From Dethiothermospora halolimnae (lineage in GTDB: Bacteria; Bacillota; Clostridia; Tissierellales; VENL01), in contig NZ_JBAKFX010000018.1 in the NCBI RefSeq assembly GCF_037577855.1, positions 32,211-64,210 of the forward strand: DNA of 32,000 nt, given 5' to 3'. The notes below the pieces were generated by a model. That model saw only the letters and a list, made by a program, of their open reading frames with translations. It was not told the origin of the DNA and did no database searches. Position numbers and translations under genes: made by a program. Positions 16,931 to 32,000 of the stretch are shown here, one piece after another; positions within the stretch are counted from its first letter, which is position 1, and every line of letters begins with the position of its first letter.

Positions 16931-16958
16931 GGCAGTCAGTTTATTGGCTGTCTTTTTT
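16931..16958 (+). terminator. Probable terminator/attenuator after the activator gene
   Basis: Stem ggcagtcag / ttggctgtc (with G-U pairs), loop ttta, followed by tttttt. Confidence 0.45.
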
Positions 16959-16991
16959 CTTTGGAAATTATTATTAAAAGAAGGTGTAACA

Positions 16992-17129: not shown

Positions 17130-17177
17130 AAATTTTTAAAAATAAAGCTTAAACTCTGTAAAGGAGGTGACAGATCA

Positions 17178-17219
17178 ATGGATATTATAAACTTATTTTT
17201 TATTGATGAATATGGTTGA
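17178..17219 (+). CDS. 13-codon micro-ORF (MDIINLFFIDEYG) with strong SD
   Basis: aaaggaggtga lies 7 nt upstream of ATG 17178, and the stop is TGA 17217-17219. No other support. Confidence 0.2.
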   Translation: MDIINLFFIDEYG

Positions 17220-17261
17220 TTATAGCTTTTAGTAAAATATTGGCATATAGGAAGTGATTAT

Positions 17262-17720: not shown

Positions 17721-17766
17721 AAAAAACAAAAATAAAAGATTCATTCAAGAAAGGGGAAGATAGATA

Positions 17767-19134
17767 ATGCCAGGTGGTACATTTAATCCATTAGTAGGTA
17801 AAGTAAGACCAGGAATGTATATGAACTTTGAAGCTGTTACTCAAGATAGAATCAAGTCTCAAGAGAGGGGTACTGTTTTAATGCCACTACCCAATGCTAA
17901 ATGGGGACCAGCAAAAGAGTTTATAACCATAACAGACCCATCGGAAACATATGATTTACTAGGATATGATATAAATGATAAAGAAATGTTATTAATTAAA
18001 GAAGCATTTAAAAACTGTAAGAAGGTTATAGCTTATGTATTAGCAGAAGGAGAAAAGGCTAAAGCTAGGGTAGGAGATTTAGAGATTACAGCTAAACATG
18101 GTGGAGTAAGAGGTAATGATATAAAAATAGTCATAGCTAAAGACTCTAATGATAGTAAAAACGTTATAACATATTTAGGAGATAATATAGTAGATGAACA
18201 AAATGTTAATGGCATATCAGATCTAAAGGATAATAGATTTGTAGAATTTACTAAAGGAGAAGTTTTGCCAGCTAAAAATTCAGTAGAAAAAACTCTAATG
18301 GCTCCAGCAGAGGAGCTTGTGGAAACAGCGGGTACATCCCTTAAAGGGGGAAGTAATGGTGTTTATTCAAACATTGATATTACTGAATTTTTAAGTGAAA
18401 GTGAAACCCAATTCTTTGATTGTATAGCTTTTCCTATAGAAGATCCTTCGTATCAGTCAAGTTTTAAAACAAAATTAGAGTATTTTAGAGATGAAATAGG
18501 GAAAAAAGTTATGGGTGTTACTTCTAACTATGATGGAGACTTAGAGGGACTTATAAATGTTGTAAATGGAGTAGTTTTAAATGATGGAACTAAACTTTCT
18601 GCAAGAGAAGCCGTTGCATGGGTAGCAGGAGCAACATCAGGAGCCAACATAAATGAATCCTTAACCCATAAGGTATATCAAGATGCGGTGGATGTTAATC
18701 CAAGATTAAAACATGACCAAATAGTTGAAGGGCTACAAAAAGGTTATTTTATATTCACAAATACTGGAGATAAAGTGATTGTAGAGCAGGACAGAAATAG
18801 TTTAACTACATTAAGTGCTAAAAAGACTAAAAAGTGGACTAAGAATAGACCCCTTAGGGTTATGGATGCAATAAACAATGACTTATTAAAAAGTTTCAAT
18901 GGTACCTATGCAGGTAAATTGGATAATAATGATGATGGACATAGTATAGCTAAAGCTTTAATAACAAAATATTTAACAGCATTACAAGATGTTAATGCTA
19001 TTAGAAACTTAAATAAAGAGAATGATGTTATTATTGATAAAGAATTATCGGTAGGAGATGAGTTATATGCAGATATAGCTGTTCAACCTATGGATGCAGC
19101 AGAAAAATTCTATTTCACAGTGAAAGTTCGATAG
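17767..19134 (+). CDS. Contractile tail sheath protein (XkdK-like)
   Basis: The N-terminus MPGGTFNPLVGKVRPGMYMNF is typical of PBSX/SPbeta-type sheath proteins. Length 455 aa, followed by the tube gene. Confidence 0.85.
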   Translation: MPGGTFNPLVGKVRPGMYMNFEAVTQDRIKSQERGTVLMPLPNAKWGPAKEFITITDPSETYDLLGYDINDKEMLLIKEAFKNCKKVIAYVLAEGEKAKARVGDLEITAKHGGVRGNDIKIVIAKDSNDSKNVITYLGDNIVDEQNVNGISDLKDNRFVEFTKGEVLPAKNSVEKTLMAPAEELVETAGTSLKGGSNGVYSNIDITEFLSESETQFFDCIAFPIEDPSYQSSFKTKLEYFRDEIGKKVMGVTSNYDGDLEGLINVVNGVVLNDGTKLSAREAVAWVAGATSGANINESLTHKVYQDAVDVNPRLKHDQIVEGLQKGYFIFTNTGDKVIVEQDRNSLTTLSAKKTKKWTKNRPLRVMDAINNDLLKSFNGTYAGKLDNNDDGHSIAKALITKYLTALQDVNAIRNLNKENDVIIDKELSVGDELYADIAVQPMDAAEKFYFTVKVR

Positions 19135-19146
19135 GAGGTATAAATA

Positions 19147-19584
19147 ATGGGAATTTATTCAGGTAGACATACAATATCAGCAAGGGAAGGTAGAGCTTTT
19201 TCAGACGGTGAAGAAATCTTAAATATGATAAAATTTGAGATTAAAGCTGAAAAAATTAAGGTGGAATTACCTATAGTAGGTAGAAGAACTAAAAGTAACA
19301 AAACAGTTGGAATAAAATATACAGGAACAATAACACAGTATAAGAAAAGTAGTGCTTTTGCTAAGATGATTCAAGAGTTTAAAGAAACAGGAAAAGATGT
19401 ATATTTCGATATGCAAGGGGTATTAGAAGACCCATCAAGTGAACTAGGAGCAGAGCGTATAGTGGCTATAGGTTGTAATATAGATAGTGCAACTTTAATA
19501 AACATAGACATTGAAAGTGATGATGTTGTTAAGGAAGAAATACCTTTTACAATTGAAGATGTAGAGATACAACAGGCTATTTAA
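19147..19584 (+). CDS. Tail tube protein (XkdM-like)
   Basis: 145 aa directly after the sheath gene. The size and the sequence pattern (..REGRAFSDGEEILNMIKFEIKAEK..TGTITQYK..) fit the XkdM/DUF2001 tube family. Confidence 0.75.
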   Translation: MGIYSGRHTISAREGRAFSDGEEILNMIKFEIKAEKIKVELPIVGRRTKSNKTVGIKYTGTITQYKKSSAFAKMIQEFKETGKDVYFDMQGVLEDPSSELGAERIVAIGCNIDSATLINIDIESDDVVKEEIPFTIEDVEIQQAI

Positions 19585-19590
19585 GTGATA

Positions 19591-19625
19591 GTTGAGAATG
19601 GAGAATTGAGAGTGGAAAGTAAGTG
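19591..19625. repeat. Second copy of the gagaattgagagtgga repeat motif
   Basis: The 16-mer gagaattgagagtgga at 19601-19616 is identical to 3249-3264, with similar flanks (ttga.aat.gagaattgagagtgga.agt.aag). Both copies start within about 10 nt of a stop codon. Confidence 0.5.
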
Positions 19626-19626
19626 G

Positions 19627-19657
19627 GAGAAGTGGTTTATACCACTTTTCTTCATTT
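19627..19657 (+). terminator. Terminator-like hairpin after the tube gene (possible attenuator)
   Basis: Stem gagaagtggt / accacttttc (one mismatch), loop ttat, followed by ttcattt. A second strong hairpin gctgggggatt-cgt-aatcccccagc at 19730-19754 has no U-tract. Confidence 0.45.
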
Positions 19658-19795
19658 ATAAACTTAAACCCAATAAAATTTTAGTTTTTTCGGATTGATA
19701 ATCTCCATCTAATTTAAATAATTATTAGTTGCTGGGGGATTCGTAATCCCCCAGCTAATTTAAATTAAAAATGAAATTAAAAGAGGAGGATTAAA

Positions 19796-20233
19796 ATGAC
19801 AAATAAAAATACTAGAGATTTAAGTTTCTTTATGAAAGGTAAAGCAAATGAAGCGATGACCAGGGAAGTAATTATATCAAAAAGATATACTGATGAAAAT
19901 GGAAATCCTATTCCAGTTTTATTAAAACCAACTACAACAGAAAAGGTTGAAAGATTCCAGAAGGAATGTACCGTAATAAAAGGTAAGGGAAATGGTGCTA
20001 AAGAGGTCGTTGACAATATAAGATTTGCAGGAAAATTAGCAATAGAATGTTGTGTATATCCTGATTTTAAAGATAAAGAGCTTCTTAAGTCCTACGAATG
20101 TGTAGATCCAATTGATTTGATTAAAAAGATATTTAGCCTACCAGGGGAATATGCAGAGTTAATGAATCAAGTTCTTAGTATAAATGGATTTGATGAAGAC
20201 TATGAAAAGCTAGTAGAAGATGCAAAAAACTAA
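19796..20233 (+). CDS. Tail assembly chaperone (XkdN-like, gpG analogue)
   Basis: 145 aa between the tube and tape measure genes. It ends at a slippery heptamer. Confidence 0.7.
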   Translation: MTNKNTRDLSFFMKGKANEAMTREVIISKRYTDENGNPIPVLLKPTTTEKVERFQKECTVIKGKGNGAKEVVDNIRFAGKLAIECCVYPDFKDKELLKSYECVDPIDLIKKIFSLPGEYAELMNQVLSINGFDEDYEKLVEDAKN

Positions 20234-20394
20234 TTAAAAGCGGTGATTATATGGCTGTATATAGTCATCGTTTATTTCAGAGGCATCATATACTACCCCA
20301 AGATTTTTATGAAATGGATGATTGTAAAAAAGCTTTCATTATAGCCTCCGAGCAAATACAAATTGAAGAAGAGAAAAAATTAGATAGGAGGTGA
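19796..20394 (+). CDS. Frameshift-extended chaperone (gpGT analogue)
   Basis: The -1 frame downstream of 20230 (LIKSGDYMAVYSHRLFQRHHILPQDFYEMDDCKKAFIIASEQIQIEEEKKLDRR) ends 3 nt before the tape measure ATG. This is the conserved G/GT arrangement of long-tailed phages. Confidence 0.55.
20224..20230 (+). promoter_or_regulatory. Programmed -1 ribosomal frameshift site A_AAA_AAC
   Basis: Zero-frame codons are gcA AAA AAC TAA. After a -1 slip the next codon is CTA at 20230, and the frame is open to TGA 20392-20394. Confidence 0.65.
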
Positions 20395-20397
20395 CCT

Positions 20398-22812
20398 ATG
20401 GCAAGTTTAGCAAAGGTATTTAATATAAACGAAAGAATATCAGGCAACTTAGCAAAAACCACAGAGGTAATTTCAAAATTTCAAGGTAATTTAAAGAAGA
20501 TGGCCCAAGTTGGGGAGACCTCGGCAAACAAAGTTAATAAAAAAATAAAAAAGTTATCAACCGATAGTAGTAAGAGTTTTAATGAGTTAGAAAAAGCTGC
20601 AATAACTATAAAAAATCCTATAGAAGAAGTATTAAACAATAAAATAAATATAGAAGCCTTGGTTAAAACAGAAAACCTAGAAAAAATAAAGGATATAACG
20701 AAGGAAGTAACGGGAATAGACTTAGGAGAAATAAAGTTTAGTAAAGAGGGATTAACAAAGGTAATAGATCAAGTAAAAAATAGTAAGTTAAATATGAAGG
20801 CCTTAGTTGATACAAAGAACCTAGAGAAGATAAAAAATATAACAAAGGATGTAACAGGGATAGATTTAGGAGAAATAGAGGCAAGTAAGGAACAGATAAC
20901 AAAAACAATAGAGCAAATAAAAAATAGTAAAATAAATATGAAAGCCTTGGTTAAAACAGAGAACCTAGAAAAAATAAAGGATATAACGAAGGAAGTAACG
21001 GGAATAGACTTAGGAGAAATAAAGTTTAGTAAAAAGGGGTTAACAAAGGTAATAGACCAAGTAAAAAATAGCAAGTTAAATATGAAGGCCTTAGTTGATA
21101 CAAAGAACCTAGAGAAGATAAAAAATATAACGAAGAATGTAACAGGGATAGATCTAGGAGAAATAGAGGCAAGTAAGGAACAGATAACAAAAACAATAGA
21201 GCAGATAAAAAATAGCAAAATAAATATGAAAGCCCTGGTTAAAACAGAGAATCTAGAAAAAATAAAGGATATAACAAAGGAAGTAACGGGAATAGACTTA
21301 GGAGAAATAAAGTTTAGTAAAGAGAGATTAACAAAGGTAATAGATCAAGTAAAAAATAGTAAGTTAAATATGAAGGCATTAGTTGATACAGAGAACCTAG
21401 AGAAGATAAAAAATATAACAAAGGATGTAACAGGGATAGACTTAGGTGAAATAAAATTTAATAAAGAAGGACTAACTACCTTTATTAATCAAGTGAAAAA
21501 TTGCGAAATAAATATAGATGCTTTGGTAAATACAGAAAACTTAGGTAAGATGAATGATGTCTTAAAGGATGTAACAGGGATAGATTTAGGAGAAGTAGAG
21601 TTTAGCAAAGAAGGTTTAACCAACTTTATAGATCAAGTAAAAAATAGTAACTTTGATATAAAAGCTTTAGTAAATACAGAGAACTTAGGAAAAATCAATG
21701 ATGTTTTAAAGGATATGACAGGAATAGACTTAGGAGAGATAAAGTTTAATAAAGAAGGTATTAGTAGTTTTATGGAAAGTGTTAAAAATGCTAAGTTTGA
21801 CTTGGGAGCTTTAGTCAATACTGAAGGATTTAAAAATATAGCTGCTTCAGTAACAGAAATCTCTGGAATAGAACTTGGAAATATAAGTTCCTCTATAGAA
21901 GGATTGAAGGGATCTTTTTCAAATTTAGCTAGCCAAGGACTTGCTGGAGTCAAAGAAGGACTTGGAGGATTTCTTGATAAAATTGGATTAGCAAAAATAA
22001 AGACAGGGGCACTTATAGCTAAACAATACGCAATGGCAGGTATAACTAAGGCCGTAACAGTGGTTCAATGGCTGTGGAATGCAGCATTAAGTGCAAATCC
22101 CATAGGGTTGGTGATTATAGCAATCGCCGGTCTAATAGGGGGTCTAGTTCTTTTATATAAAAAGTGTACATTTGTAAGAAAGATAGTAGATGGATTCTGG
22201 AGTGGACTTAAAAGTGGTGCTGAGATGGCGGTAAACTTTGTTATAAAGATGATTAATAAGTTTATAGGATGCTTAAATAAAGGTATTAAGCTTATTAATA
22301 AAATTCCAGGAGTAGATATACCAGAGATTCCAGAAATTCCAGAGGTATCATTTACAGATAAAAATAAAGAAAATAAAGTAGAAAAGGGACAGGAAGCACC
22401 AGAGCTAGTTAAGGGAGTACAAATGGTTCCTGAAGGACCAAAAACTTTAGATGGTTCTGATATGAATTTTAATAATAATAAAATACCAACTGGAACAGAA
22501 ACATTACAAGAAAAAACCAGCTATACAAAGGATATAAATATAAACCACGATTTTAATAATATTCCCGATAGTAAGGGGAATATTGATTCTTCTAGTAACT
22601 TTAATAACATATCAAAAACAGAAACCAATGAAATAATATATGGCTCATCTAAACAAAGGGAAACTGTAAATAATGATAATAGAAATTATTCAGTGGTCTT
22701 TGGAGATAGGGTGATTGAAAAGAAAGCAAATGTGGATGAGATTTTAGATAGTATTAGAAAAGTATTAGAAGATGGTATGAATACAGGAGGTGAAGAGGTA
22801 TTTGAAATCTAA
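20398..22812 (+). CDS. Tail tape measure protein
   Basis: 804 aa in the canonical position after the chaperone pair. It has long helical repeats and a hydrophobic segment (ANPIGLVIIAIAGLIGGLVLLY). Confidence 0.8.
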   Translation: MASLAKVFNINERISGNLAKTTEVISKFQGNLKKMAQVGETSANKVNKKIKKLSTDSSKSFNELEKAAITIKNPIEEVLNNKINIEALVKTENLEKIKDITKEVTGIDLGEIKFSKEGLTKVIDQVKNSKLNMKALVDTKNLEKIKNITKDVTGIDLGEIEASKEQITKTIEQIKNSKINMKALVKTENLEKIKDITKEVTGIDLGEIKFSKKGLTKVIDQVKNSKLNMKALVDTKNLEKIKNITKNVTGIDLGEIEASKEQITKTIEQIKNSKINMKALVKTENLEKIKDITKEVTGIDLGEIKFSKERLTKVIDQVKNSKLNMKALVDTENLEKIKNITKDVTGIDLGEIKFNKEGLTTFINQVKNCEINIDALVNTENLGKMNDVLKDVTGIDLGEVEFSKEGLTNFIDQVKNSNFDIKALVNTENLGKINDVLKDMTGIDLGEIKFNKEGISSFMESVKNAKFDLGALVNTEGFKNIAASVTEISGIELGNISSSIEGLKGSFSNLASQGLAGVKEGLGGFLDKIGLAKIKTGALIAKQYAMAGITKAVTVVQWLWNAALSANPIGLVIIAIAGLIGGLVLLYKKCTFVRKIVDGFWSGLKSGAEMAVNFVIKMINKFIGCLNKGIKLINKIPGVDIPEIPEIPEVSFTDKNKENKVEKGQEAPELVKGVQMVPEGPKTLDGSDMNFNNNKIPTGTETLQEKTSYTKDININHDFNNIPDSKGNIDSSSNFNNISKTETNEIIYGSSKQRETVNNDNRNYSVVFGDRVIEKKANVDEILDSIRKVLEDGMNTGGEEVFEI
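20656..21951 (+). repeat. In-frame tandem repeat inside the tape measure gene: 9 x 144 nt (48 aa)
   Basis: Units ALV[KDN]T[EK]NLEKIK[DN]ITK[ED]VTGIDLGEI...VKNSK[LI]NMK. The first six alternate between two subtypes, giving three near-identical 288-nt super-repeats (20656, 20944, 21232). The last three units are diverged. Confidence 0.9.
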
Positions 22813-23452
22813 ATATCAATTTTGGCTTAGTTTTAATAATGGAGAACAAAGATTACAACTTCCGGTAAATCCTCCTAAAATAAAAATAGAAAATGGTATG
22901 AAAAATGAAACAATAGATGTATCTAATCTTGGAGAAATAACCGTTATTCAAAAGTCTACACCTAAAAAAATTTCAATAGAGAGTATTTTTCCAGCTAATG
23001 ATGGTCCCTACTGTGAGTATAAAGATATCCCAGAGCCCCAAGAAGCCGTTGACATAATAGAAAGTTGGCAAAATAGTGAAAAGCCCATAAGATTTTTAAT
23101 AACAAATACAAATATAAATTATCCTGTATCTATAGAAAAGTTTACCACCACAGAAAAGGCTGGGGATATTGGAACCATATCCTATAACTTAGAATTAAAA
23201 GAGTATAGATTTATAGAAGTAAAGGAAATGGAAGAAAAAAATGGGGAGATTAATATTGGTTCAAAGGAAGAAGAAAGAACCGATGAAAGAAGTATACCAA
23301 AACTTTATATAGTAAAGGCTGGAGATTGTCTTTATAAAATTGCAAAGTCCCAGTTAGGGGATGGATCAAGATATGGTGAAATAGCCAAATTAAATAATAT
23401 AAAGCCAGACTATACTATATACCCTAATCAAAAGTTAAAGCTTCCCAATTAA
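22790..23452 (+). CDS. LysM-domain tail protein (XkdP-like)
   Basis: C-terminal LysM motif YIVKAGDCLYKIAKSQLGDGSRYGEIAKLNNIKPDYTIYPNQKLKLP. The GTG start overlaps the tape measure end; TTG 22802 is an alternative. Confidence 0.75.
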   Translation: MKRYLKSKYQFWLSFNNGEQRLQLPVNPPKIKIENGMKNETIDVSNLGEITVIQKSTPKKISIESIFPANDGPYCEYKDIPEPQEAVDIIESWQNSEKPIRFLITNTNINYPVSIEKFTTTEKAGDIGTISYNLELKEYRFIEVKEMEEKNGEINIGSKEEERTDERSIPKLYIVKAGDCLYKIAKSQLGDGSRYGEIAKLNNIKPDYTIYPNQKLKLPN

Positions 23453-23455
23453 GAG

Positions 23456-24436
23456 GTGAGGAGTTTGTTACAGCTAATACTAGTTAAAAAGGATAAATCA
23501 GTGGATATTTCAAAGTTAGTAGAAAAGATAACTTGGAAAGGTAAAAAGCTAAGGGCTCCACGAAGTGTTGAAGTATCCTTTGTGGATACAGATAAGGGAT
23601 ATCATAAGAACGTAGGCATAAAAGAAGGGGACGGTTTAGTTTTTATTTGGAAAGAGAATGAATTGTTTAGAGGAAATGTATTTAGTATAAGTAGAGGCAA
23701 AAGCGCTAAATCAAAGATGGTTGCCCATGACAATCTCTTTTATTTAGTAAATAATAAGGACTCTTATGTTTTCACAGAGCAGTCCCTAGATAAAATAGTC
23801 AGCAGAATATGTAGTGATTTTCAAATACCAACAGGTGAATTGACATCATCAGACTATATTATCCCCTATCAAGTTAGTGATTCTAAAGTGTTATATGACA
23901 TAATACTAAAAGCTATGGACACCACATATAACCAGACTGGTAAAAGATATTATCTAAGGGCTAAAGAGGGGAAAATAGATTTATTACTAAGAAAAGAAAA
24001 TGTAAGAAAATGGATTTTAGAAGATGGTAAAAATTTAATAAATTATAACCATAACTCTTCTATAGAAAATACAATAACTAAGGTAAAAATGACAACAGGA
24101 GAAGGGGACGAAACTATAATAAAAACAGCAGAAGATGGAAGTCTGGTAGAGCAATTTGGAGTTTTACAATATTATAAAAAAGTAAATGACAAAATAAATG
24201 AAGGACAGCTACAAGAAAGGGTGGATAAAGCCTTAAAAGAAAAGGGAAAAGTCGAAAAACAAATATCCATTGAAGCTATAGGCATAGAAGATATAATAAG
24301 TGGATGTGGAGTAAATCTAGCTATACCAGAGCTTGAGATAGAAAAGGGATATTATGTAGATGAAGATACCCATACCTTTAAAGGAAATAAACATACAATG
24401 AAGCTTAAACTTACTGAAACCATGGAATTGGGGTGA
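23456..24436 (+). CDS. Baseplate hub-region protein (XkdQ-like)
   Basis: 326 aa. Its size and position match XkdQ in the PBSX order P-Q-R-S-T-U. Confidence 0.55.
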   Translation: MRSLLQLILVKKDKSVDISKLVEKITWKGKKLRAPRSVEVSFVDTDKGYHKNVGIKEGDGLVFIWKENELFRGNVFSISRGKSAKSKMVAHDNLFYLVNNKDSYVFTEQSLDKIVSRICSDFQIPTGELTSSDYIIPYQVSDSKVLYDIILKAMDTTYNQTGKRYYLRAKEGKIDLLLRKENVRKWILEDGKNLINYNHNSSIENTITKVKMTTGEGDETIIKTAEDGSLVEQFGVLQYYKKVNDKINEGQLQERVDKALKEKGKVEKQISIEAIGIEDIISGCGVNLAIPELEIEKGYYVDEDTHTFKGNKHTMKLKLTETMELG

Positions 24437-24440
24437 TAGT

Positions 24441-24911
24441 ATGATAGATATTATAAAAAAAGTATCAAGTCAAGTGGCAAAAACTTCTGGCATAAATATA
24501 ATGGAAGCCATAATAACAAAGGAACCACCGGAAATTGAAATAAAGATTAAAAATAACGATAAGCTAATAATCCCTAAGGACCTTATTATAGTATCGGAAC
24601 ATTTACTAGAACATACTAGAATAGCTACTATAAAAATGGTGGAGCATATAGATTCTGAAACTGATGAACAGTTAACATCGCCTATTAGTGGTACAAGTAA
24701 AACATGTCAAGGAGCAATGCCTCCTATAAACTTTACCTTTCAAGGGACTGGTACTAGCTTAGACCTTACCCATAAACACATATTAGAAACCTTTACAATG
24801 GAAGATGGAGAGATAACCTTTAGATGCTGTTTAAAAGAAGGGGATAAGGTTATGGTTATAGCTTTTGAAGAGGGACAAAAGTATTATATCATGGATAAGG
24901 TGGTGAGTTAG
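24441..24911 (+). CDS. Baseplate/spike-region protein (XkdR position)
   Basis: 156 aa, 4 nt after the previous stop. The assignment is by synteny only. Confidence 0.4.
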   Translation: MIDIIKKVSSQVAKTSGINIMEAIITKEPPEIEIKIKNNDKLIIPKDLIIVSEHLLEHTRIATIKMVEHIDSETDEQLTSPISGTSKTCQGAMPPINFTFQGTGTSLDLTHKHILETFTMEDGEITFRCCLKEGDKVMVIAFEEGQKYYIMDKVVS

Positions 24912-25313
24912 ATGCCCCTTACACCAAATATAAAGATTCCTAAGATAGTAAAATCCACAGTAGGTCCATCTAAAACCTATAGACTTGACACAAAAGCTAA
25001 GCGGATAGTAGGAAAGATTGATGAATTAGAAGCTATAAAGCAGTTTGTTATGAAGGCAATAAGAACCGTAAGATACTCAAACTTAATATATAGTCATAAG
25101 TTTGGATGCCAAATAAAAAACTTGCTGGGAAAGGGACTAACAGAAGAATATATCAAATCAGAAGTGCCTCGGTTAATAGCTGAGGCATTAATTTATGATG
25201 AAAGAATTATAAAGGTCCATAGCTTTGATATAGAGGTTAAAGAGGATAAAATGTTTGTTGAGTTTATAGTAGATAGCACTGAAGGAGAGTTAAATATAAG
25301 GGAGGTGATATGA
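24912..25313 (+). CDS. Baseplate wedge protein, gp25/W-like (XkdS-like)
   Basis: 133 aa, start abutting the previous stop, directly upstream of the baseplate J gene. N-terminal pattern PSKTYRLD..RI.G.IDELEAIKQ.V.K is as in DUF2634/XkdS proteins. Confidence 0.55.
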   Translation: MPLTPNIKIPKIVKSTVGPSKTYRLDTKAKRIVGKIDELEAIKQFVMKAIRTVRYSNLIYSHKFGCQIKNLLGKGLTEEYIKSEVPRLIAEALIYDERIIKVHSFDIEVKEDKMFVEFIVDSTEGELNIREVI

Positions 25314-26354
25314 TTGTTTGAAGATAGGACATATGAAAATATCTTAAATGAAATGCTTAATGAAGTTCCCCATGACTTAGATAAAAGAGAAGGTTCTATT
25401 ATATACGATGCATTGGCACCTGCCGCATTAAAAATGGCCCAAGTGTATGTGGATTTAAAAAGTGTTTTGGCCTTAGGATTTGCAGATACATCCAATGGAC
25501 AATGGCTTGATATGAGGGTAAATGAAAGGGGACTTAAAAGAAAGGAAGCAATAAAAACAATAAGGGAAGCTAAGTTTAAACCAGATATAGTTAAGGAAGG
25601 TACAAGATTTTTTATAGATGGTTTATATTTTAAGTTAAGCAAAGATGGAAATGTAGAGTGTGAGATATCAGGGGAGATAGGAAATGAACCTTTAGATGGT
25701 AGCAGTTTAGTTCCTGTAAATACCATACCTAACCTTGAAGAAGCAAAATTAGGTAAGATAATAAAATATGGTAGAGATAAAGAGAGTGATGAAGAACTAC
25801 TTGATAGGTATATAGAGGATTTACAAAGACCTGCGGAAAATGGAAATAAAGCCCACTATGAAAAGTGGGCAACAGAAGTAAATGGGGTAGGAGATGCAAA
25901 GGTTTTTCCACGGGAATATGGGCCAAATACTGTAAAAGTAGTTATAATAGATTCTTCTGGAAAACCTGCTTCCCAGGAATTAGTTAAAAAGGTTCAAAAC
26001 TATATTGATCCAGAAAGTTCAGGACTAGGGGAAGGAGTGGCTAACTTAGGAGCTAAATGCACTGTTAAAAGTGCAACTAAGAAGATAATTAATATATCTG
26101 TAAAACTAGAGCTAGGGGAAAATAAGACTATAGAACAGGCAAAAAAAGAGATAGGCTCACTATTAAATGACTACTTAGTAGAAGAAATAGCCTTTAAACA
26201 AAATACAGTTAGAATAACTAATATAGGGAATATAATACTATCAGCTAAAAGTGTAATAGATTATTCGGATCTTAAGTTAAATGGAGAAACTAAAAACATT
26301 GAATTAAAAGATGAAGAAGTACCGATATTGGGAGAGGTGAGCTTCAATGAATAA
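25314..26354 (+). CDS. Baseplate J-like protein (XkdT-like)
   Basis: 346 aa. The N-terminus FEDRTYENILNEMLNEVP..DKREGSIIYDALAPAALKMAQ is characteristic of baseplate J/gp47-family proteins. TTG start. Confidence 0.75.
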   Translation: MFEDRTYENILNEMLNEVPHDLDKREGSIIYDALAPAALKMAQVYVDLKSVLALGFADTSNGQWLDMRVNERGLKRKEAIKTIREAKFKPDIVKEGTRFFIDGLYFKLSKDGNVECEISGEIGNEPLDGSSLVPVNTIPNLEEAKLGKIIKYGRDKESDEELLDRYIEDLQRPAENGNKAHYEKWATEVNGVGDAKVFPREYGPNTVKVVIIDSSGKPASQELVKKVQNYIDPESSGLGEGVANLGAKCTVKSATKKIINISVKLELGENKTIEQAKKEIGSLLNDYLVEEIAFKQNTVRITNIGNIILSAKSVIDYSDLKLNGETKNIELKDEEVPILGEVSFNE

Positions 26355-27003
26355 TAAAAAAGAGTTAAAAAGCTATCTACCCCATATTTATGAAGATGTT
26401 TATGAAATGAATAGCATTATAGAAGTAGAGGGAAGTCAATTTGACAAAATAGATAAAGAAATTGGAAGAGTATTAGAACAGTTTTTTGTTGATAAGACTA
26501 CCTACGAAATTGAGCATTGGGAAAATATATATGGACTAACCCCAGACCCATCTAAAACCATAGAACAGAGAAGAAGTGCTATAAAGTCTAGAATAAGGGG
26601 TAGGGGAAAACTAAATAAACAATTAATAAAAAATGTAGTTGATGCATATACCGATGGTCAAGTAGATGTCTTACTTAGAAGGGACCTACTGATTATAAGA
26701 TTTAATAGTATATATGGAATCCCAGAAACCCTTGATATAGTCAAAAGAGAACTTGATAACATAAAGCCGGCCCATTTAGGAATAGAATATAGATTTGCAT
26801 ATCTACTTATAAAAGATGTTCATAAAAAAATGACCCTAGAGGAAATAGAAAATGTTACATTGGATAAATTTGCAGGTAAAAGTGGTATCAATAGTCAACT
26901 TGATTATTTAACAATAGGGGCTATTCATAATGTAATGACCCTGGAACAAATTGAGAAGTTAACTTTGTACGAGATTACCGGAGGTGAAATATATGGCAAG
27001 TAG
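26347..27003 (+). CDS. Baseplate/tail protein XkdU-like (DUF2313/YmfQ-like)
   Basis: 218 aa, overlapping the baseplate J stop by 8 nt. The N-terminal LPHIYEDVYEMNSIIEVEGSQFDKI pattern is typical of this family. Confidence 0.6.
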   Translation: MNNKKELKSYLPHIYEDVYEMNSIIEVEGSQFDKIDKEIGRVLEQFFVDKTTYEIEHWENIYGLTPDPSKTIEQRRSAIKSRIRGRGKLNKQLIKNVVDAYTDGQVDVLLRRDLLIIRFNSIYGIPETLDIVKRELDNIKPAHLGIEYRFAYLLIKDVHKKMTLEEIENVTLDKFAGKSGINSQLDYLTIGAIHNVMTLEQIEKLTLYEITGGEIYGK

Positions 27004-28045
27004 AACGCCAAAACTTAAATTATTAAAAAAAGATCCCATGGCCGATAAGAATGATACATTTAACATTGAAACTATGTTAAATGATAACTGGGATATAATA
27101 GATACGGAAGTAGCAGGAAGATATACTAAAAACGAGACCAATAAAAAAATTGAAGAAACAGCAGACTCAATATATGAAGAAGTTAATAGGGTGGAACAAG
27201 GGATAAAGGCATATGCAGATAGTAATAGACCAACAAAGGTATCGGAACTTGAAAATGATGCCCATTATGAAACCATTGAGAGAACCAATGAAAAGATAAA
27301 TCAAGCAGAAAGCAATGCAAGGGAATACACAAGACAATATGCAAACTCAATAAAACCAACAAAGGTATCGGAACTTGAAAATGATAAGGGTTATGAAACA
27401 GTAGAAGGGGCACAAAATAAAGTAAGCACAGCAGAACAAAGAGCAAAGGCATATGCAGATAGTAAGAGGCCCACAAAGGTATCACAACTAACAAATGATA
27501 CCAATTATGAAACAGTAACAGGAGCCCAACAGGGGATTAATGCCGCTGAGCAAAGGGCAAAGGACTATGCCGATAATAAAAGGCCTATAAAGGTATCGGA
27601 ATTAACCAATGATGCAGATTATGAAACGGAATCAGGAGCCCATCAAAAAGCTAAAGCAGCAGAGGAAAGGGCCAAAAATTATACAAATGTCAAAGTAGCC
27701 CATCTATTAAATTCTGCTCCAGGGACTTTAGATACCCTTAACGAATTGGCAAAGGCCCTTGGTAATGATCCTAACTTTGCAACTACGATACTAAACAAAT
27801 TATCTAAAAAATCCGATGAAGGGCATAAACATACAAAGAGTGGTATCAGTAATTTTTTAGGTAGCAATAAAGAAAAGAAAATAGCCCATGGTTTAGGGAA
27901 AACTCCATCGGGGGTTTATGTAACACCTATTGAAAAGACCAATGGTTATTTAGGGGAAGTTTGGGTTAGATATGATGCCAACTATATTTATGTAGGAAAT
28001 ACTGGAGAATATAAAGGGAAATTTAATTGGGTTACATTAAGATAA
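26993..28045 (+). CDS. Tail fibre protein with internal repeats
   Basis: ATG 26993 lies 6 nt after GGAGGTG; the track start 26984 is less likely. There are four repeats of about 38-42 aa of the form YA[DN]S.[RK]P[TI]KVS[EQ]L[ET]ND..YET...A.......AE.RAK. The segment APGTLDTLNELAKALGNDPNFATTI is common in phage fibres. A short C-terminal domain follows. Confidence 0.75.
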   Translation: MASRTPKLKLLKKDPMADKNDTFNIETMLNDNWDIIDTEVAGRYTKNETNKKIEETADSIYEEVNRVEQGIKAYADSNRPTKVSELENDAHYETIERTNEKINQAESNAREYTRQYANSIKPTKVSELENDKGYETVEGAQNKVSTAEQRAKAYADSKRPTKVSQLTNDTNYETVTGAQQGINAAEQRAKDYADNKRPIKVSELTNDADYETESGAHQKAKAAEERAKNYTNVKVAHLLNSAPGTLDTLNELAKALGNDPNFATTILNKLSKKSDEGHKHTKSGISNFLGSNKEKKIAHGLGKTPSGVYVTPIEKTNGYLGEVWVRYDANYIYVGNTGEYKGKFNWVTLR

Positions 28046-28066
28046 TATTTTTTAGGAGGGGTAAAA

Positions 28067-29458
28067 ATGAAAAATACTAGATATCCAGATAGTGCTAGTT
28101 TTTTAGTTACAGAAAACTGTAACTTAGCATGTAAATATTGTTTTGAGAAACATAATAAAAAAGTGATGAGTAAAGAGGTGATCCATAGAGGGCTGGAGCT
28201 TTTATGTGATGGAGCAAAGAGACAAGGGAGAGACTCCTTTCATGCTATGATTTTTGGAGGAGAGCCATTATTACATCCCCATTTAGTAGAGGAAATACTT
28301 AAGTATGGGTTGGAACTCCAAAGAAGGAATAATATAAACTTTACAGCTAGTCTTATAACAAATGCAACAATAATGAATGATGAGATATTTAGAATATTAC
28401 TTGAATATAGGGACAAGGTTGATTTAAGTACCCAACTATCAGTGGACGGTATAAAAAAGGTTCATGATATGTATAGGGTAACTAAAGATGGAAAAGGAAG
28501 TTTTCAGTTAATTGAAGATAATATAGAAAAATTCAAACAAATATATAAGAACAGATCTGGAATGTTAACGGTACACGGGGTAGTGAATAAAAAGGCACTG
28601 CCCTATTTATTTGAAAGTTATAGATACTTTAAAGAGGAATGGGGATTTAATGAAATATGGTTTATGCCCCTCCATGAAGATGATTGGACCATTGAAGATA
28701 TTGATATATACAGAAAAGAGTTAAATAAGATAGCAGATTATATAATAGAAGATGCTAAAAAGGGTAAGATGAAAACATTTAAAGGATACTCTCCAATAAA
28801 TAGATGTTTTGAAAAACAAAGACCTTCAGCTCCCTGTGGAGCAGGAAAGGGATTTATAAGTATTACAGCCGATGGCAGTATATATCCTTGTCATCATTTT
28901 TATTTTAATCATAAAGAACTTAAAATAGGGAATGTATGGAAAGGCATCGATGATAGTAAAAGAAGAATATATCTAGACTATGAGTCCAGTGATATGACAT
29001 GTCCTAATAATTGTGATCATGTAAATTGCTATAGATGTATTGCTGTTAACTACGATGTTAATGGTAGTATATTAAGCCAAGTTAGAGGAAATTATTGTAA
29101 ACTATCTCGGGTAGATAGAGAAGTACAATTAAGGGTAAAAAGAGAAATTGAAAAAATAGAAAAGAAGAATCCCAAAGAAAATAGGAAAGATCAGGGGACC
29201 TTTATTGAAAGCTGGACAGAGGATGGAATGTACTATGAAAGATATAGAAATTCCGATGGAAGCGAAAGTGTATATGATAGACAGTTAAGAAATCGAGATA
29301 AGGAAGTAAATAAAAACAGTGACGACAAAGAATGTGATCATAATAAAGGAGAATGTCAGTGTGGAAGCAAAGAAGAGGATATGGAAACATTGGCTATGGC
29401 TTTAAAAATGATAATTGAAAAGCTTAATACCTTGGAGAAAAATATACCAAAAAAGTAG
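28067..29458 (+). CDS. Radical SAM enzyme with SPASM-type auxiliary-cluster domain (anSME-like maturase)
   Basis: CxxxCxxC at C18/C22/C25 (TENCNLACKYCF) and FGGEPLL. SPASM-like Cys pattern: C257...G270-x4-C275, C312-x3-C316-x4-C321-x2-C324, C344. A charged C-terminal extension of about 110 aa follows. The gene starts 21 nt after the fibre gene, with RBS aggagggg. Confidence 0.8.
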   Translation: MKNTRYPDSASFLVTENCNLACKYCFEKHNKKVMSKEVIHRGLELLCDGAKRQGRDSFHAMIFGGEPLLHPHLVEEILKYGLELQRRNNINFTASLITNATIMNDEIFRILLEYRDKVDLSTQLSVDGIKKVHDMYRVTKDGKGSFQLIEDNIEKFKQIYKNRSGMLTVHGVVNKKALPYLFESYRYFKEEWGFNEIWFMPLHEDDWTIEDIDIYRKELNKIADYIIEDAKKGKMKTFKGYSPINRCFEKQRPSAPCGAGKGFISITADGSIYPCHHFYFNHKELKIGNVWKGIDDSKRRIYLDYESSDMTCPNNCDHVNCYRCIAVNYDVNGSILSQVRGNYCKLSRVDREVQLRVKREIEKIEKKNPKENRKDQGTFIESWTEDGMYYERYRNSDGSESVYDRQLRNRDKEVNKNSDDKECDHNKGECQCGSKEEDMETLAMALKMIIEKLNTLEKNIPKK

Positions 29459-29469
29459 GGTGATGCTAT

Positions 29470-30144
29470 ATGAGTTTAAGTTTAAAATGGTTGATGAACT
29501 ATGGAAAGTCCAAGGGAGGATATGATATAACCCCTAACAATAGGCATTTAGAAGATTTAAAAATATTATTAAAGGACATGCAAAAGGTTAGAAAAGTAGG
29601 ACAGTATAATGGGGAATTATCCCTAGGTGATTTATATGATGAATTCGAAAAGCTTCCCTCTTGTAGTTGTGATAGTAAACATAGTTATATCTGTAGCTGC
29701 GAAAGTAGATGCGCCTGTGATAATAACATAGGAGATTGTAATTGTGAAAGTAGATGTACTACCCATAAAGTACCGGGATGTGATTGTGATAATAGATGTG
29801 CCTGTGACTCAAATGTGGGTAATTGTAGTTGTGAGGGTAGATGTGCCTGTGATAATAATGTAGGAAATTGTAATTGTGAAAGTAGATGTACCACCCATAA
29901 AAAGACAGGATGTAGTTGTGATAATAGATGTGCCTGTAATAGAAATATAGGAAGTTGTGACTGTGAAAATAGATGCAACTGTGTAAGTGAATGTTCATGT
30001 AATAGTAGATGCTCTTGTGTTCTTGACCAGCCCATATGTGACCCCCATGCAGTATGTGATAGATATTTACCTCCTGTATGTGAGCATCATCTAAAACCTA
30101 TATGTGAAGTTGATGAGAGGCGATATTATGCTGATAAGCATTAA
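29470..30144 (+). CDS. Cys-rich repeat protein A (224 aa, about 36 Cys)
   Basis: A Cys-free 64-aa N-terminal region precedes eight tandem 12-15-aa units such as CDCDNRCACDSNVGN and CNCESRCTTHKVPG, followed by the C-terminal PICDPHAVCDRYLPPVCEHHLKPICEV. The gene starts 11 nt after the rSAM stop. I recognise no homologue. Confidence 0.7.
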   Translation: MSLSLKWLMNYGKSKGGYDITPNNRHLEDLKILLKDMQKVRKVGQYNGELSLGDLYDEFEKLPSCSCDSKHSYICSCESRCACDNNIGDCNCESRCTTHKVPGCDCDNRCACDSNVGNCSCEGRCACDNNVGNCNCESRCTTHKKTGCSCDNRCACNRNIGSCDCENRCNCVSECSCNSRCSCVLDQPICDPHAVCDRYLPPVCEHHLKPICEVDERRYYADKH

Positions 30145-30204
30145 ATATAAATCCATGGGGAATAAAGGATATTATTATAAAAATCAGGAGAGGAGGCATA
30201 TTAT

Positions 30205-30708
30205 ATGGCTATAATAAAGAGTCTTCAAATAGATAGGGGACCCGCTGAACCACCAATAGAAATTTGTAGTTCAGAACGTTGTGATAGGGTTATGATAGAT
30301 CCCATATGTGATAGCCATGCACCAGAACCTATTTGTGAACTTCATCTATGTGATAGAGTAAACATTTGTCCATCGAATTGTAATTGTGAGTCAAACAATC
30401 CAAGATGTAAGTGTGATAATAGATGTAGTTGTAATGCTGATAATAGATGCGATTGTGAAAGTAGATGTAGTTGCCATGTTCAGAGAACATGTAGCTGTGA
30501 TAATAGATGTATATGTAATGGTCAAAAAGGATGTACCTGTGACAATAGGTGCTCTTGTGATTCCAAAAGAGGATGTAGCTGTGATAGTAGATGTAATTGT
30601 AATGTAGATAGAACGTGTGAGTGTGACAATAGATGTGCATGTAATGGCCAAAAAGGATGCACCTGTGATAATAGATGTAGCTGTAATGCTAAGAGATACT
30701 TTGATTAA
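30205..30708 (+). CDS. Cys-rich repeat protein B (167 aa, about 36 Cys)
   Basis: Strong RBS ggagaggagg. The N-terminal module EICSSERCDRVMIDPICDSHAPEPICELHLCDRVNIC is followed by seven regular 14-aa units (CSCDNRCICNGQKG, CTCDNRCSCDSKRG, ...). Confidence 0.7.
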   Translation: MAIIKSLQIDRGPAEPPIEICSSERCDRVMIDPICDSHAPEPICELHLCDRVNICPSNCNCESNNPRCKCDNRCSCNADNRCDCESRCSCHVQRTCSCDNRCICNGQKGCTCDNRCSCDSKRGCSCDSRCNCNVDRTCECDNRCACNGQKGCTCDNRCSCNAKRYFD

Positions 30709-30719
30709 GGAGGGGTAGT

Positions 30720-31598
30720 ATGGAAAGGTACGTTATACATGTGACGAAAAAATGTAATATGGACTGTTTTTACTGTTATGAGGAGGATAAAAGCAGTGGA
30801 GATAGAAGTTGGGAAGATACTAAAAATTTGATAGATGATATATTGAAATATAATAATGAGTTTGAGGTGGAATTTTTAGGTGGAGAACCTATGATGAACT
30901 TTCCTCTTATAAAAAGATGCATTAATTATTTAAAAGACAAAGGGAATGTAAAGAAATATATAATAACTACCAATGGAACTATCATTAATGAAGAGATAGT
31001 AAAGTTTCTAATGGAAAATTCCAATGTATGCTTAGGTGTAAGTCTCGATGGTAATAGGTTTATGAACAGTATGAGGGTATTTAAAGATGTAGATGGTAAC
31101 AAAATAAATTCTTATGAAAAAGTGATAGAGAATTTAGAAAATCTAAAACAAAATAATCTCATTGATAGAGTGTTTATTCATATGGTGATACATCCATACA
31201 ATGTGGGCTACTTAAGTGATGCAGTTGATCACTTCTATAACAAGGGTTATAAAAATATAGACATAGGAATAGTTGAAAAAACTTTAGATATAACTGAAGA
31301 GTTTGAAAGGGCATTTATCAGAGAACATGATATCCTATCTAATAGAATAAGAGTTGGTATGTACCCCGAGTTAATAGTAACCACATTAGATTATAAGCCA
31401 GACATTAGTAGCGAAAGAACATATATAAAGAATAAAGATGGAATTACAGTGGCAGAAAGCTATGGAAGGGTTAAAGACTTTACAGATAATGATAACAATG
31501 AATATGAAATACTAAAGAATGATAGTAAAATCAATAGAATAAAACAACTGAAATTAGCTGTATATAATAATCATAAAAATGTTATCCAAAGTAGGTAG
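30720..31598 (+). CDS. Radical SAM enzyme, core domain only (no SPASM/auxiliary Cys)
   Basis: CxxxCxxC at C12/C16/C19 (TKKCNMDCFYCYEE) and LGGEPMM. Only two further Cys in 292 aa. The gene starts 11 nt after Cys-rich protein B, with RBS ggagggg. Confidence 0.75.
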   Translation: MERYVIHVTKKCNMDCFYCYEEDKSSGDRSWEDTKNLIDDILKYNNEFEVEFLGGEPMMNFPLIKRCINYLKDKGNVKKYIITTNGTIINEEIVKFLMENSNVCLGVSLDGNRFMNSMRVFKDVDGNKINSYEKVIENLENLKQNNLIDRVFIHMVIHPYNVGYLSDAVDHFYNKGYKNIDIGIVEKTLDITEEFERAFIREHDILSNRIRVGMYPELIVTTLDYKPDISSERTYIKNKDGITVAESYGRVKDFTDNDNNEYEILKNDSKINRIKQLKLAVYNNHKNVIQSR

Positions 31599-31644
31599 AA
31601 ATCTAGAGAAGTTTAGTTTTCTTTTTTATTATTAAAATATGCAG

Positions 31645-31670
31645 GGCCTGGGCATGCCTAGGCCTTTTTT
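31645..31670 (+). terminator. Strong Rho-independent terminator after the rSAM cassette
   Basis: GC-rich stem ggcctggg / cctaggcc, loop catg, followed by tttttt. Confidence 0.8.
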
Positions 31671-31697
31671 AAATCTGTAAAATATCGGAGGTGACCT

Positions 31698-31931
31698 ATG
31701 AATAATGAAGTTGTCAAATTAAAAATAACGGAACATGACAAAAAAATATCAGAACTGGATAGAAGAGTGGATAATAATGAAAGGGAAAATGCTGAGTTTA
31801 AAGTACAAATAGAAAATTTATGCAAAACTATCCAACAACTTACTGTCACTATGAAATGGTTTATAGGATTATTTTTAGGAGGATTTATATCCTTCTTTTT
31901 TTATGCAGTTCAAAAGGGGCTTATAGGATAG
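31698..31931 (+). CDS. xhlA: XhlA-like lysis-associated membrane protein
   Basis: 77 aa with an N-terminal coiled coil (HDKKISELDRRVDNNERENAEFKVQIENL) and a single C-terminal TM helix (WFIGLFLGGFISFFFYAV). The architecture matches PBSX XhlA. Confidence 0.65.
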   Translation: MNNEVVKLKITEHDKKISELDRRVDNNERENAEFKVQIENLCKTIQQLTVTMKWFIGLFLGGFISFFFYAVQKGLIG

Positions 31932-31941
31932 GAGGAGGGTC

Positions 31942-32000
31942 ATGTTATTTCCAGTTAGAAAAGAAGATTTATGTAAATGTAGATATACTTCTCCCTATGG
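31942..32000 (+). CDS. Start of next gene (truncated by window end); possibly a lysis-cassette component
   Basis: ATG lies 5 nt after GGAGGAGGG. The product starts MLFPVRKEDLCKCRYTSPYG... and is too short to assign. Confidence 0.35.
   Translation, partial: MLFPVRKEDLCKCRYTSPY

Follow-up and report, generated by a model that had tools for sequence, protein, structure and literature searches.

A cluster of genes lying between a tail fibre gene and a lysis module was analysed in a 32,000-nucleotide stretch of the genome of Dethiothermospora halolimnae, a thermohalophilic member of the Tissierellia (contig NZ_JBAKFX010000018.1, positions 32,211 to 64,210). This whole stretch is termed the window, and positions are counted from its first letter. 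Two cysteine-rich repeat proteins, A and B, are encoded between two radical S-adenosylmethionine (radical SAM) enzymes, rSAM1 and rSAM2, and the gene directly upstream of rSAM1 is that of a tail fibre whose C-terminal domain is here called fc (Table 1). The cassette and the tail genes follow one another closely, the gaps from fibre through rSAM1, A and B to rSAM2 being 21, 11, 60 and 11 nt, and a terminator-like hairpin stands before the lysis genes. The same four parts, namely the fc fibre, the radical SAM/SPASM enzyme rSAM1, a cysteine-repeat protein and rSAM2, form a new and conserved module in the tail regions of phages and tailocins.

Table 1. Features of the cysteine-repeat cassette and its flanks in the window
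Feature	Position	Strand	Size or extent	Basis or remark
Tail fibre gene	26984-28045	+	353 aa	PHROGs tail fibre/tail protein families match residues 134-303
fc C-terminal domain of tail fibre	about 27818-28042	+	last ~75 residues	fc HMM 123 bits
rSAM1	28067-29458	+	463 aa	radical SAM/SPASM enzyme
Protein A	29470-30144	+	224 aa	ORF translation
Protein A N-terminal domain	29470-29673	+	residues 1-68	family-wide conservation, HMM, AlphaFold2
Isolated CxC ahead of A repeat array	29662-29670	+		
Protein A repeat array	29692-30018	+	8 units, residues 75-183	
Protein A C-terminal tail	30019-30144	+	residues 184-224	module PICDPHAVCDRYLPPVCEHHL, then stop codon
Protein B	30205-30708	+	167 aa	ORF translation
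Protein B head	30205-30405	+	residues 1-67	module PICDSHAPEPICELHLCDR; family N-domain absent
Protein B repeat array	30406-30708	+	7 units	C-x-C-D/E-x-R-C-x-C; C-terminal family motif CTCDNRCSCNAKRYFD, then stop
rSAM2	30720-31598	+	292 aa	small radical SAM enzyme
Terminator-like hairpin	31643-31666	+	10-bp stem	6 GC pairs, T-run; between rSAM2 and xhlA
XhlA-family lysis protein	31698-31931	+		Pfam XhlA, E 3.7e-16; lysis module start

The translations of A and B given in a preliminary description of this DNA were identical to those obtained by re-translation of the open reading frames (ORFs). That description had placed a regular C-x-C-[DE]-x-R-C-x-C lattice at 29662-30684, an interval bounded by the first CxC of A (C65) and by the final Cys of B (C160). 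The lattice is real. The pattern C.C..RC occurs eight times in A (residues 75, 90, 104, 119, 134, 148, 163 and 175) and seven times in B (residues 68, 82, 96, 110, 124, 138 and 152), and C.C..R was found on average 0.37 (A) and 0.68 (B) times in 5000 residue shuffles, with maxima of 4 and 5. The recount of cysteines gave the claimed 36 for each protein (16.1% of A and 21.6% of B), and the two A units said to lack the fourth Cys were found as CNCESRCTTH at A90 and A134. The consensus of the units is C-x-C-[D/E/N]-x-R-C-x-[C/T], with Arg at position 6 in 100% of them and D (53%), E (40%) or N (6%) at position 4, so that 14 of the 15 units have D/E there. The start-to-start spacing is 14 residues in eight cases, 15 in four and 12 in one. 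Although they share a reading frame, A and B are two genes rather than one gene with a nonsense mutation, because four in-frame TAA codons and a strong ribosome-binding site (RBS; aggagaggagg) stand between them. The tail of A resembles the head of B (BLASTP E 2e-4), the short module PICDxHA...PxCExHL being common to both. In the AlphaFold2 model of A, built from a 12-sequence alignment, residues 1-68 form three helices with a confidence score (pLDDT) of 83-93, while residues 69-224 have a pLDDT of about 30; hence no fold is predicted for the repeats without modification or metal. A Foldseek search of this model against the PDB gave nothing significant, and the N-terminal domain has no solved relative there. 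This domain may act as a leader-like recognition element and/or as a fibre-docking domain.

The repeats were also analysed at the DNA level. Tandem Repeats Finder reported a 45-nt array in A (6.2 copies, 67% matches) and a 42-nt array in B (6.8 copies, 68% matches), and A also holds a higher-order duplication of three units (132 nt, 2.2 copies, 79% matches). The 27-nt cores of the units have a mean nucleotide identity of 74%, and the longest exact stretch common to A and B is 18 nt. The unit arrays are old and the three-unit duplication of A is younger and fairly recent. The earlier proposal that selection on the motif and not slippage accounts for the divergence of the units is thus upheld for the single units, but the duplication in A departs from it. 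Small ORFs of 44-116 aa overlap the repeats on the minus strand and in other frames (29632-30035 and 30329-30662); these are by-products of the TGT/AGA-rich periodic DNA and not independent genes. Such long antisense and alternative-frame ORFs could mean that A and B too are chance open frames in a TGT-rich tandem repeat and not genes, and it agrees with this that gene callers miss or overrun the homologous ORF at one other locus (L006) and that B failed to retrieve itself from a search of 5.8 billion proteins. This explanation is nevertheless extremely improbable, as the frame is kept with the same N-terminal domain, motif and C-terminus over many genera at 35-55% identity and close pairs have more synonymous than nonsynonymous differences. 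At A and B the RBSs are strong and the spacing is operon-like, and both proteins are present in the ENA and Logan gene calls. At L006 the Cys-repeat ORF (5787-6278) is uncalled, and the rSAM2 call is extended 5' over it in another frame.

By their sequences, A and B together constitute a split member of an unannotated protein family, here named CRP, because A holds the N-terminal domain of the family (N-domain) and B its C-terminal motif. The one close homologue (P0002) is a single protein having both. The architecture of the CRPs is a three-helix N-domain, a variable number of C-x-C-x-x-R copies (5-27) and a C-terminal CxCNxRCxCN..RF, in proteins of 163-514 aa with 8-19% Cys. The N-domain of ~65-85 aa (MSLSLRELKEYLIAKEGYDITP...LNDLK.LL.DM..VR...LSLGD) is 47-57% identical to that of A in four aligned members, and its hidden Markov model (HMM) matches about 25 loci; most members close with CxCNGRCSCNxxKRF-x-stop. 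The conserved N-domain, the split status of A and B and the tail-fibre/tailocin context had been missed in the preliminary description. Direct protein searches gave one homologue among 5.8 billion proteins and 12 among 1.84 billion representatives. The 12 came from an exhaustive phmmer search with A(1-104), which missed members from Vallitalea and Desulfitobacterium though they are gene-called, and it is probable that protein databases cover the family very poorly. The loci were collected by another route, by contig look-ups, a genome scan and an IMG/VR scan with rSAM2 homologues, and independently by a scan for the fibre domain. IMG/VR scans with A or with the N-domain alignment gave no match owing to the limits of the pattern and tblastn searches, whereas the rSAM2 and fc alignments retrieved loci. 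The order fc fibre, rSAM1, CRP, rSAM2 was found in the window and at about 25 non-identical loci from anaerobic Bacillota and IMG/VR viral contigs. The hosts include Vallitalea, Desulfitobacterium, Tissierella, Peptostreptococcaceae, Thermoanaerobacterales and Izimaplasma, lineages which we take to be anaerobes. Every locus with a full-length rSAM2 homologue has a C-x-C-x-x-R repeat ORF, which bears out the link of the lattice to radical SAM genes.

The annotated databases hold no record of the family. A, B and their relatives (12 family members) have no match at E<=1 to any Pfam family or to a relevant NCBIfam family, the 12 CRPs tested have none at E<=1 to the NCBIfam precursor models, PHROGs has no family for A, B or homologues, and the family profile finds 0 PDB sequences at E<=1. 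Literature searches gave no description of the cassette. A typical cassette, with a Cys-repeat protein, rSAM2 and three more rSAM genes, is present on L010 (JAQUVJ010000003.1), a contig assigned to the bin 'Candidatus Nanoarchaeia archaeon'; in all likelihood the contig is bacterial or phage DNA placed in the wrong bin. In the Izimaplasma HR2 contig (L009/L017) both enzyme genes are interrupted, rSAM1 being broken into two ORFs and rSAM2 being cut off from its start, with the 494-aa Cys-repeat ORF intact; these interruptions are either decay of the cassette or assembly/frameshift errors.

A profile of the repeat was made from 344 units of 24 other CRPs, for which C-x-C-x-x-R was the search pattern itself. 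Position 4 is V in 25%, N in 23%, Q in 14%, D in 13% and E in 10% of the units, at position 7 T accounts for 59% and C for 7%, and the spacing is mostly 8-19 residues. Universal in the units are C1, C3 and R6 only, which is the search pattern; nothing else recurs. The three traits that the preliminary description took as defining thus do not extend to the family: an invariant D/E-x-R fails as position 4 is mostly V/N/Q, the 14-15 aa period gives way to more variable spacing, and a unit of four Cys is contradicted by the rarity of Cys at position 7. The D/E, the second CxC and the 14-15 period are lineage traits of the window and its nearest relatives (L001, L006/P0124, P0127).

The repeat protein was found to change 2-3 times faster than its enzymes between close relatives. 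The pair L023 and L033 is 98.7% identical in fc, 93.5% in rSAM1, 94.3% in rSAM2 and 82.6% in the CRP, and nonsynonymous codon differences stand to synonymous ones in a ratio of 0.52 in the CRP and of 0.19 in either enzyme, with all Cys and Arg of the CRP kept. Between L025 and L027 identity is 88-90% for the enzymes and 74% for the CRP, whole units having been gained or lost. The pattern is that of a fixed Cys/Arg scaffold with rapidly changing exposed residues.

The cysteines could in principle serve metal or iron-sulfur binding, either in a metallothionein-like protein or in a metal-stapled fibre with CxC-metal coordination, for which the HxH-iron needle of T4 gp37 is an analogue. The radical SAM enzymes would then act on something else or use A and B as an Fe-S reservoir. 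The CxC...CxC spacing, the Cys content of 16-22% and the apo repeats without predicted fold are in accordance with this, and about 1 kb ahead of the element there are genes for iron uptake (FeoA/FeoB), though these belong to the host. Metallothioneins have the same high Cys content and CxC/CxxxC spacing, but they differ from A and B, in which every unit has an Arg, the N-domain is folded and there is obligate linkage to two radical SAM genes and a tail fibre. The earlier statement that the lattice is not metallothionein-like agrees with the searches, as no metallothionein or other metal family was matched in Pfam or NCBIfam at E<=1 and there is no sequence relative in the PDB. Metal binding would also leave the invariant Arg and the two radical SAM enzymes, which co-occur at all loci examined, unexplained, and most units of the family have two Cys (CxCxxRT), too few for one cluster per unit. 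This use of A and B is considered improbable.

The enzymes were compared with the curated radical SAM families. In Pfam rSAM1 matches Radical_SAM (58 bits), Fer4_12 and, just below the cut-off of 21.5 bits, SPASM (20.1 bits). It has 11 Cys invariant in 8 homologues, C18/22/25 and eight in the SPASM region (247-344), and thus both the CX3CX2C motif and the C-terminal SPASM region with 7-8 Cys by which the rSAM/SPASM superfamily is recognised. The best of 68 NCBIfam models is that of the PapB ranthipeptide maturase (NF047865, 209.7 bits, E 6.5e-62; cut-off 340), followed by the CXXX-repeat maturase (143 bits), QhpD (141 bits) and the SCIFF maturase (141 bits), all under their curated cut-offs. 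Membership of the SCIFF system (maturase model TIGR03974, cut-off 425 bits; ~45-aa six-Cys precursor) was rejected, and so was that of the CXXX-repeat system, as the scores against TIGR04115/TIGR04119 (cut-offs 350/150) are 143 and 85 bits and the substrate motif here is C-x-C-x-x-R with variable spacing. The nearest PDB sequence is CteB (5WGG, E 7e-29, covering residues 14-319). Matches of rSAM1 to the PapB, CteB and SCIFF-maturase models begin at about residue 10, which leaves no space for an N-terminal RiPP recognition element (RRE; RiPP, ribosomally synthesised and post-translationally modified peptide), and no RRE was detectable in either enzyme, model matches starting from residue ~5-14. 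At its other end rSAM1 has a ~90-aa C-terminal tail ending in an amphipathic helix. In most rSAM1 homologues the tail holds one substrate-like C-L-C-D-S-R-G motif followed by this conserved helix; NPDCLCDSRG was seen in the C-terminal ~60 residues at L005, L007, L008, L011, L012 and L014, three copies of the motif in the Izimaplasma rSAM1 and a degenerate ECQCGSKEED in the window (29330-29458). The tail motif may serve as a pseudo-substrate, as a site of self-modification or for docking.

The second enzyme is simpler. rSAM2 has one CX3CX2C motif and the Pfam domains Radical_SAM and Fer4_12, with no SPASM or twitch domain; C12/C16/C19 are its only Cys invariant over 23 homologues, and its NCBIfam matches are all far under cut-off. 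It has 159 homologues at E<=1e-10, and the 120 listed are mostly ~290 aa long and 37-52% identical. The AlphaFold2 model (pLDDT 87) gave as top Foldseek matches CteB (E 4e-14), anSME and ChlB, and then viperin, TigE, SkfB and SuiB, so that among solved structures CteB comes nearest to both enzymes. Assignment of rSAM2 to viperin/pVip was rejected, as NF038283 scored 65.7 bits against a cut-off of 180 and CteB and anSME are better structural matches; the PADLOC pVip match (73 bits) spans the generic radical SAM core only. Taken together, the affinities of the enzymes point to a Cys-directed modification of peptide or protein, and the CRPs are probably the substrates of both.

The chemistry is less certain than the substrate. 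Cys-derived thioether bridging is given about an even chance, and the units of this lineage fit the Cys-Asp/Glu links of PapB/QhpD type, because PapB accepts repeats of CXnD (n = 0-6) and in each of them links the Cys to Asp/Glu by one thioether (PMC9413430). On the same substrates the enzymes might instead carry out some other reaction, such as conversion of Cys to Calpha-formylglycine or epimerisation, which would give aldehydes or D-residues and no thioether. For this it can be said that anSME ranks among the structures most similar to rSAM2 (Foldseek E about 1e-11), that the NCBIfam model of anSME scores with both enzymes, and that rSAM2 is without the auxiliary clusters which normally hold the thiolate in thioether formation. 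The sulfatase motif C/S-x-P/A-x-R of anSME/FGE substrates likewise pairs the target Cys with a downstream Arg, but the Cys-to-Arg spacing is +3 or +5 here and +4 in sulfatases, which have Pro/Ala at +2. No sulfatase gene is present in the locus. Against the anSME model TIGR03942 (cut-off 349 bits) rSAM1 scores 79 and rSAM2 57.5 bits, and rSAM1 is far closer to PapB (210 bits), QhpD and SCIFF (141 bits each). Such other chemistry is accordingly regarded as improbable.

The link with the tail fibre was analysed by means of an HMM of the fc domain built from 8 loci. The domain of ~70 aa (F.G.G.E..I.HGLG..P......P...P.GYLGE.W.......N.YVGNSG...G.F.W) was matched in the gene directly upstream of rSAM1 at every locus where this region is present. 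N-terminal to it stands a P2-H-like part in L011 and a 1000-aa SPbeta-type tail protein in L005 and L009, and it occurs as a bare protein of 105-170 aa in L007, L008, L012 and L013. In L029/L030 the order is rSAM1, rSAM2, fc, CRP, the four parts remaining together despite the rearrangement. A second fc-CRP pair without extra enzymes was found in L035/L066, which are the same IMG/VR contig. This pair (an 85-aa fc-only protein at 9141-9395 and a 342-aa Cys-repeat protein at 9392-10417 of L035) stands about 2 kb past the complete cassette, and it is reminiscent of an alternative fibre-tip set that shares the maturases of the cassette. At L025 both the fc domain and the N-domain of the CRP are absent; the contig of L027 begins at rSAM1 and so does not cover the place of fc. 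The window fibre carries four ~37-residue repeats (RPTKVSELENDxxYETxxGAxxKxxxAEQRAKxYAD) before its conserved C-terminal domain. In L028 (7916-10561) one fibre has three tandem fc copies and then an extra C-terminal region of ~250 aa, and on account of these copies fc is seen as a modular, repeatable domain and not only a terminal knob. Its restriction to the cassette was ruled out by about 17 fc fibres without one.

At four of the cassette-free loci (L057, L058, L061, L062) the short fc fibre is followed in turn by an ORF of 125-130 aa, a protein of ~500 aa, bAvd and a reverse transcriptase. In L057 (6782-10873) the variable protein ends at 9087, and a variable region (8964-9082) within it is followed by bAvd, a template repeat (9514-9632, 89% identical to the variable region) and the reverse transcriptase. 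With this 119-nt pair confirmed, the ~500-aa protein of L057 is the variable protein of a diversity-generating retroelement (DGR). The ~500-aa proteins and the gene after the L054 fc fibre start with MSGLSLAQLRDQIL / MTLSIGELKEQI, to be compared with MSLSLRELKEYL in the CRPs. The regular expression [LI]S[LI]xxL[KR][ED]x[IL] occurs in 14 of 1070 distinct ORFs of >=100 aa from all loci, namely 9 CRPs and these 5. Detectable homology between the CRP N-domain and the DGR N-terminus was ruled out by HMM, only the motif of ~10 residues being in common.

The element as a whole consists of tail and lysis genes. Mu-gp48-like, baseplate-J, sheath-initiator, LysM, tape-measure, tube and sheath genes stand upstream of the fibre, with the sheath gene at 17.8 kb and a DUF722/sigma-r4-like regulator at 16364-16873. 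An M23 peptidase and a holin follow XhlA just outside the window, and host-type genes resume after the lysis genes. On the other side the host genes extend up to 15.4 kb and are InhA-like, GlmM, GlmS, ABC1 kinase, amine oxidase, PAS-GGDEF-EAL, permease and FeoA/FeoB. No capsid, portal or terminase gene is present in the tail cluster of the window, and this contractile-tail set with its lysis cassette is the gene content of an R-type tailocin. Hence the element (about 16364-31931 and beyond) looks, from its genes alone, like an R-type tailocin and not like a complete prophage. It shares with R-type tailocins and PBSX-like elements (diffocin, PBSX xkd) the regulator, sheath, tube, tape measure, LysM, baseplate (XkdS/T/U-like), fibre, XhlA, peptidase and holin. 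Unlike in PBSX, the cassette of rSAM1, A, B and rSAM2 stands where the fibre-accessory genes (XkdW/XkdX/XepA) would be. Since the element is a minimal headless tail cluster, the particle is its only plausible product.

Some loci have accessory genes in or near the cassette. A GT2-like glycosyltransferase is encoded between the CRP gene and rSAM2 in L013 (3285-4178), and its N-terminus is similar to that of a protein encoded upstream of rSAM1 in L028, whose accessory genes are at 3852-4739 and 4690-5745. Between one and three further radical SAM genes occur in L010 (1841-5624) and L028, four glycosyltransferases in L006 (8712-11586), a C39_2-like peptidase in L005 (6896-7519) and an S8 peptidase in L001 (1626-2732). 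These genes suggest further tailoring, possibly S-glycosylation or proteolysis.

The main rival to a place in the particle is that A and B give rise to a product of RiPP type which is released, for example as a bacteriocin, signal or adhesin. In that case the N-domain would be a long cleaved leader, release would be brought about by the lysis genes of the element, and the cassette would be a cargo 'moron' at the junction of fibre and lysis genes. The logic is that of such products, with an N-terminal region that is conserved, a core that is repetitive and hypervariable, and maturases of rSAM/SPASM type dedicated to it; the extra tailoring genes (GT2 in L013, further radical SAM genes in L010 and L028) would suit it and the cassette adjoins the lysis module. 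But in the window a terminator-like site lies between the two, in L007 the cassette is followed by host genes and no lysis genes, and when the order changes the cassette follows the fibre gene and not the lysis genes. Most loci are without a protease, transporter or immunity gene, a protease being adjacent in 2 loci only. The products of 100-400 residues are far above known radical SAM RiPPs, and the second fc-CRP pair without extra enzymes also stands against release. A released product is therefore considered unlikely, though less so than metal binding or other chemistry.

The preferred reading is that A and B form a radical-SAM cross-linked, hypervariable distal tail-fibre or receptor-binding module of the tailocin-like element, and it is judged to be about evenly balanced between right and wrong. 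According to it, rSAM1, as an enzyme of SPASM type with two auxiliary clusters and kin of PapB, CteB and QhpD, would turn the Cys thiols of the units into intramolecular S-C (thioether) bridges in the anoxic cytoplasm. The invariant Arg is probably the recognition handle, a role that Arg has in anSME substrates. In this lineage the Asp/Glu that follows the second Cys would be the likeliest acceptor. Since V/N/Q prevail at position 4 in the family as a whole, another acceptor, for example Thr7 or a backbone Calpha, is needed there. A second radical modification would be added by rSAM2. The outcome would be a redox-insensitive stapled array in which Cys and Arg are fixed and the intervening residues evolve fast, and the lack of a predicted fold in the repeats is what is expected if structure needs cross-links. 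Together with the tail fibre, such an array would serve the particle as a distal module for target recognition or adhesion; that the mature product is in the particle, docked on the fc fibre, is plausible but falls a little short of an even chance.

Several observations weigh against this reading. The CRPs of L025 and L027 are without the N-domain. Fibres with fc exist without the cassette, the best being L050 (106 bits) and L054 (94 bits) with about 15 weaker ones. The peptidases beside the cassette in L005 (C39_2) and L001 (S8), directly after rSAM2, fit leader removal from a released RiPP equally well. Asp/Glu as a universal acceptor was ruled out by the family profile. The motif sharing of CRPs and DGR proteins is a lead and not proof, because the regular expression was defined post hoc, after the proteins had been seen, and the N-domain HMM gives no significant match to the DGR proteins. 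The cassette is also absent from the cultured phages in GenBank: megablast of 26000-32000 and tblastn of A, rSAM2 and fc against 50,697 GenBank phages gave no match, and rSAM1 gave distant matches only, at 22-31% identity.

The cassette was compared with known systems. In PapA/PapB (freyrasin), CteA/CteB (SCIFF) and QhpC/QhpD, as in the window, an rSAM/SPASM enzyme with two auxiliary clusters stands beside a substrate with multiple Cys motifs, and QhpD cross-links a protein subunit and not a secreted peptide. Unlike in these systems, rSAM1 lies under the cut-off of every curated family and has a C-terminal tail and no RRE, the CRP substrates have 160-500 residues, 5-27 units and a folded 65-aa N-domain, a second SPASM-less radical SAM enzyme is always present, and the setting is a phage tail-fibre module and not a biosynthetic cluster. 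Targets of the Haft type (CXXX-repeat TIGR04115, Cys-every-fifth CefA/CefB, CcpA/CcpM) also combine short iterated Cys motifs with an adjacent rSAM/SPASM maturase, and their maturase models are among the matches of rSAM1 and rSAM2, with scores of 143, 89 and 128 against cut-offs of 350, 600 and 500; the CRPs differ from them in the motif C-x-C-x-x-R, the invariant Arg and the phage context. DGR receptor-binding proteins (Mtd-type, C-type-lectin fold) occupy the same slot after short fc fibres, start with the same N-terminal motif and likewise join a fixed scaffold to fast-changing exposed residues. Their fold and mechanism of variation are unrelated, and the CRP loci have no reverse transcriptase or template repeat. 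The variability of the CRPs looks like ordinary substitution with gain and loss of units, and their scaffold presumably depends on enzymatic cross-linking. Already known are the enzyme superfamily and repeat-Cys substrates as a theme. What appears to be undescribed is the substrate family, which has no Pfam, NCBIfam, PHROGs or PDB entry, together with the obligatory second radical SAM enzyme, the substrate size and the constant embedding beside a tail fibre.

A wider proposal is put forward more tentatively: phages and tailocins of strict anaerobes may make the receptor-binding tip of the fibre from a ribosomal C-x-C-x-x-R protein stapled covalently by two particle-encoded radical SAM enzymes, and this disulfide-free, hypervariable scaffold would be functionally interchangeable with the lectin-fold proteins of DGRs. 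Radical chemistry of RiPP style would then produce a structural protein of the virion. The CRPs are a hidden family, as 159 rSAM2 homologues stand against only 12 CRPs among 1.84 billion representative proteins, and they are a possible engineering scaffold in which the staples are fixed and the loops freely variable. If the preferred reading is true, radical SAM peptide maturation would extend from small secreted natural products to the assembly of virus particles, on substrates much larger than any known radical SAM-modified peptide, and stapling would be a means of fibre-tip stabilisation for anoxic habitats, where disulfides are unavailable.

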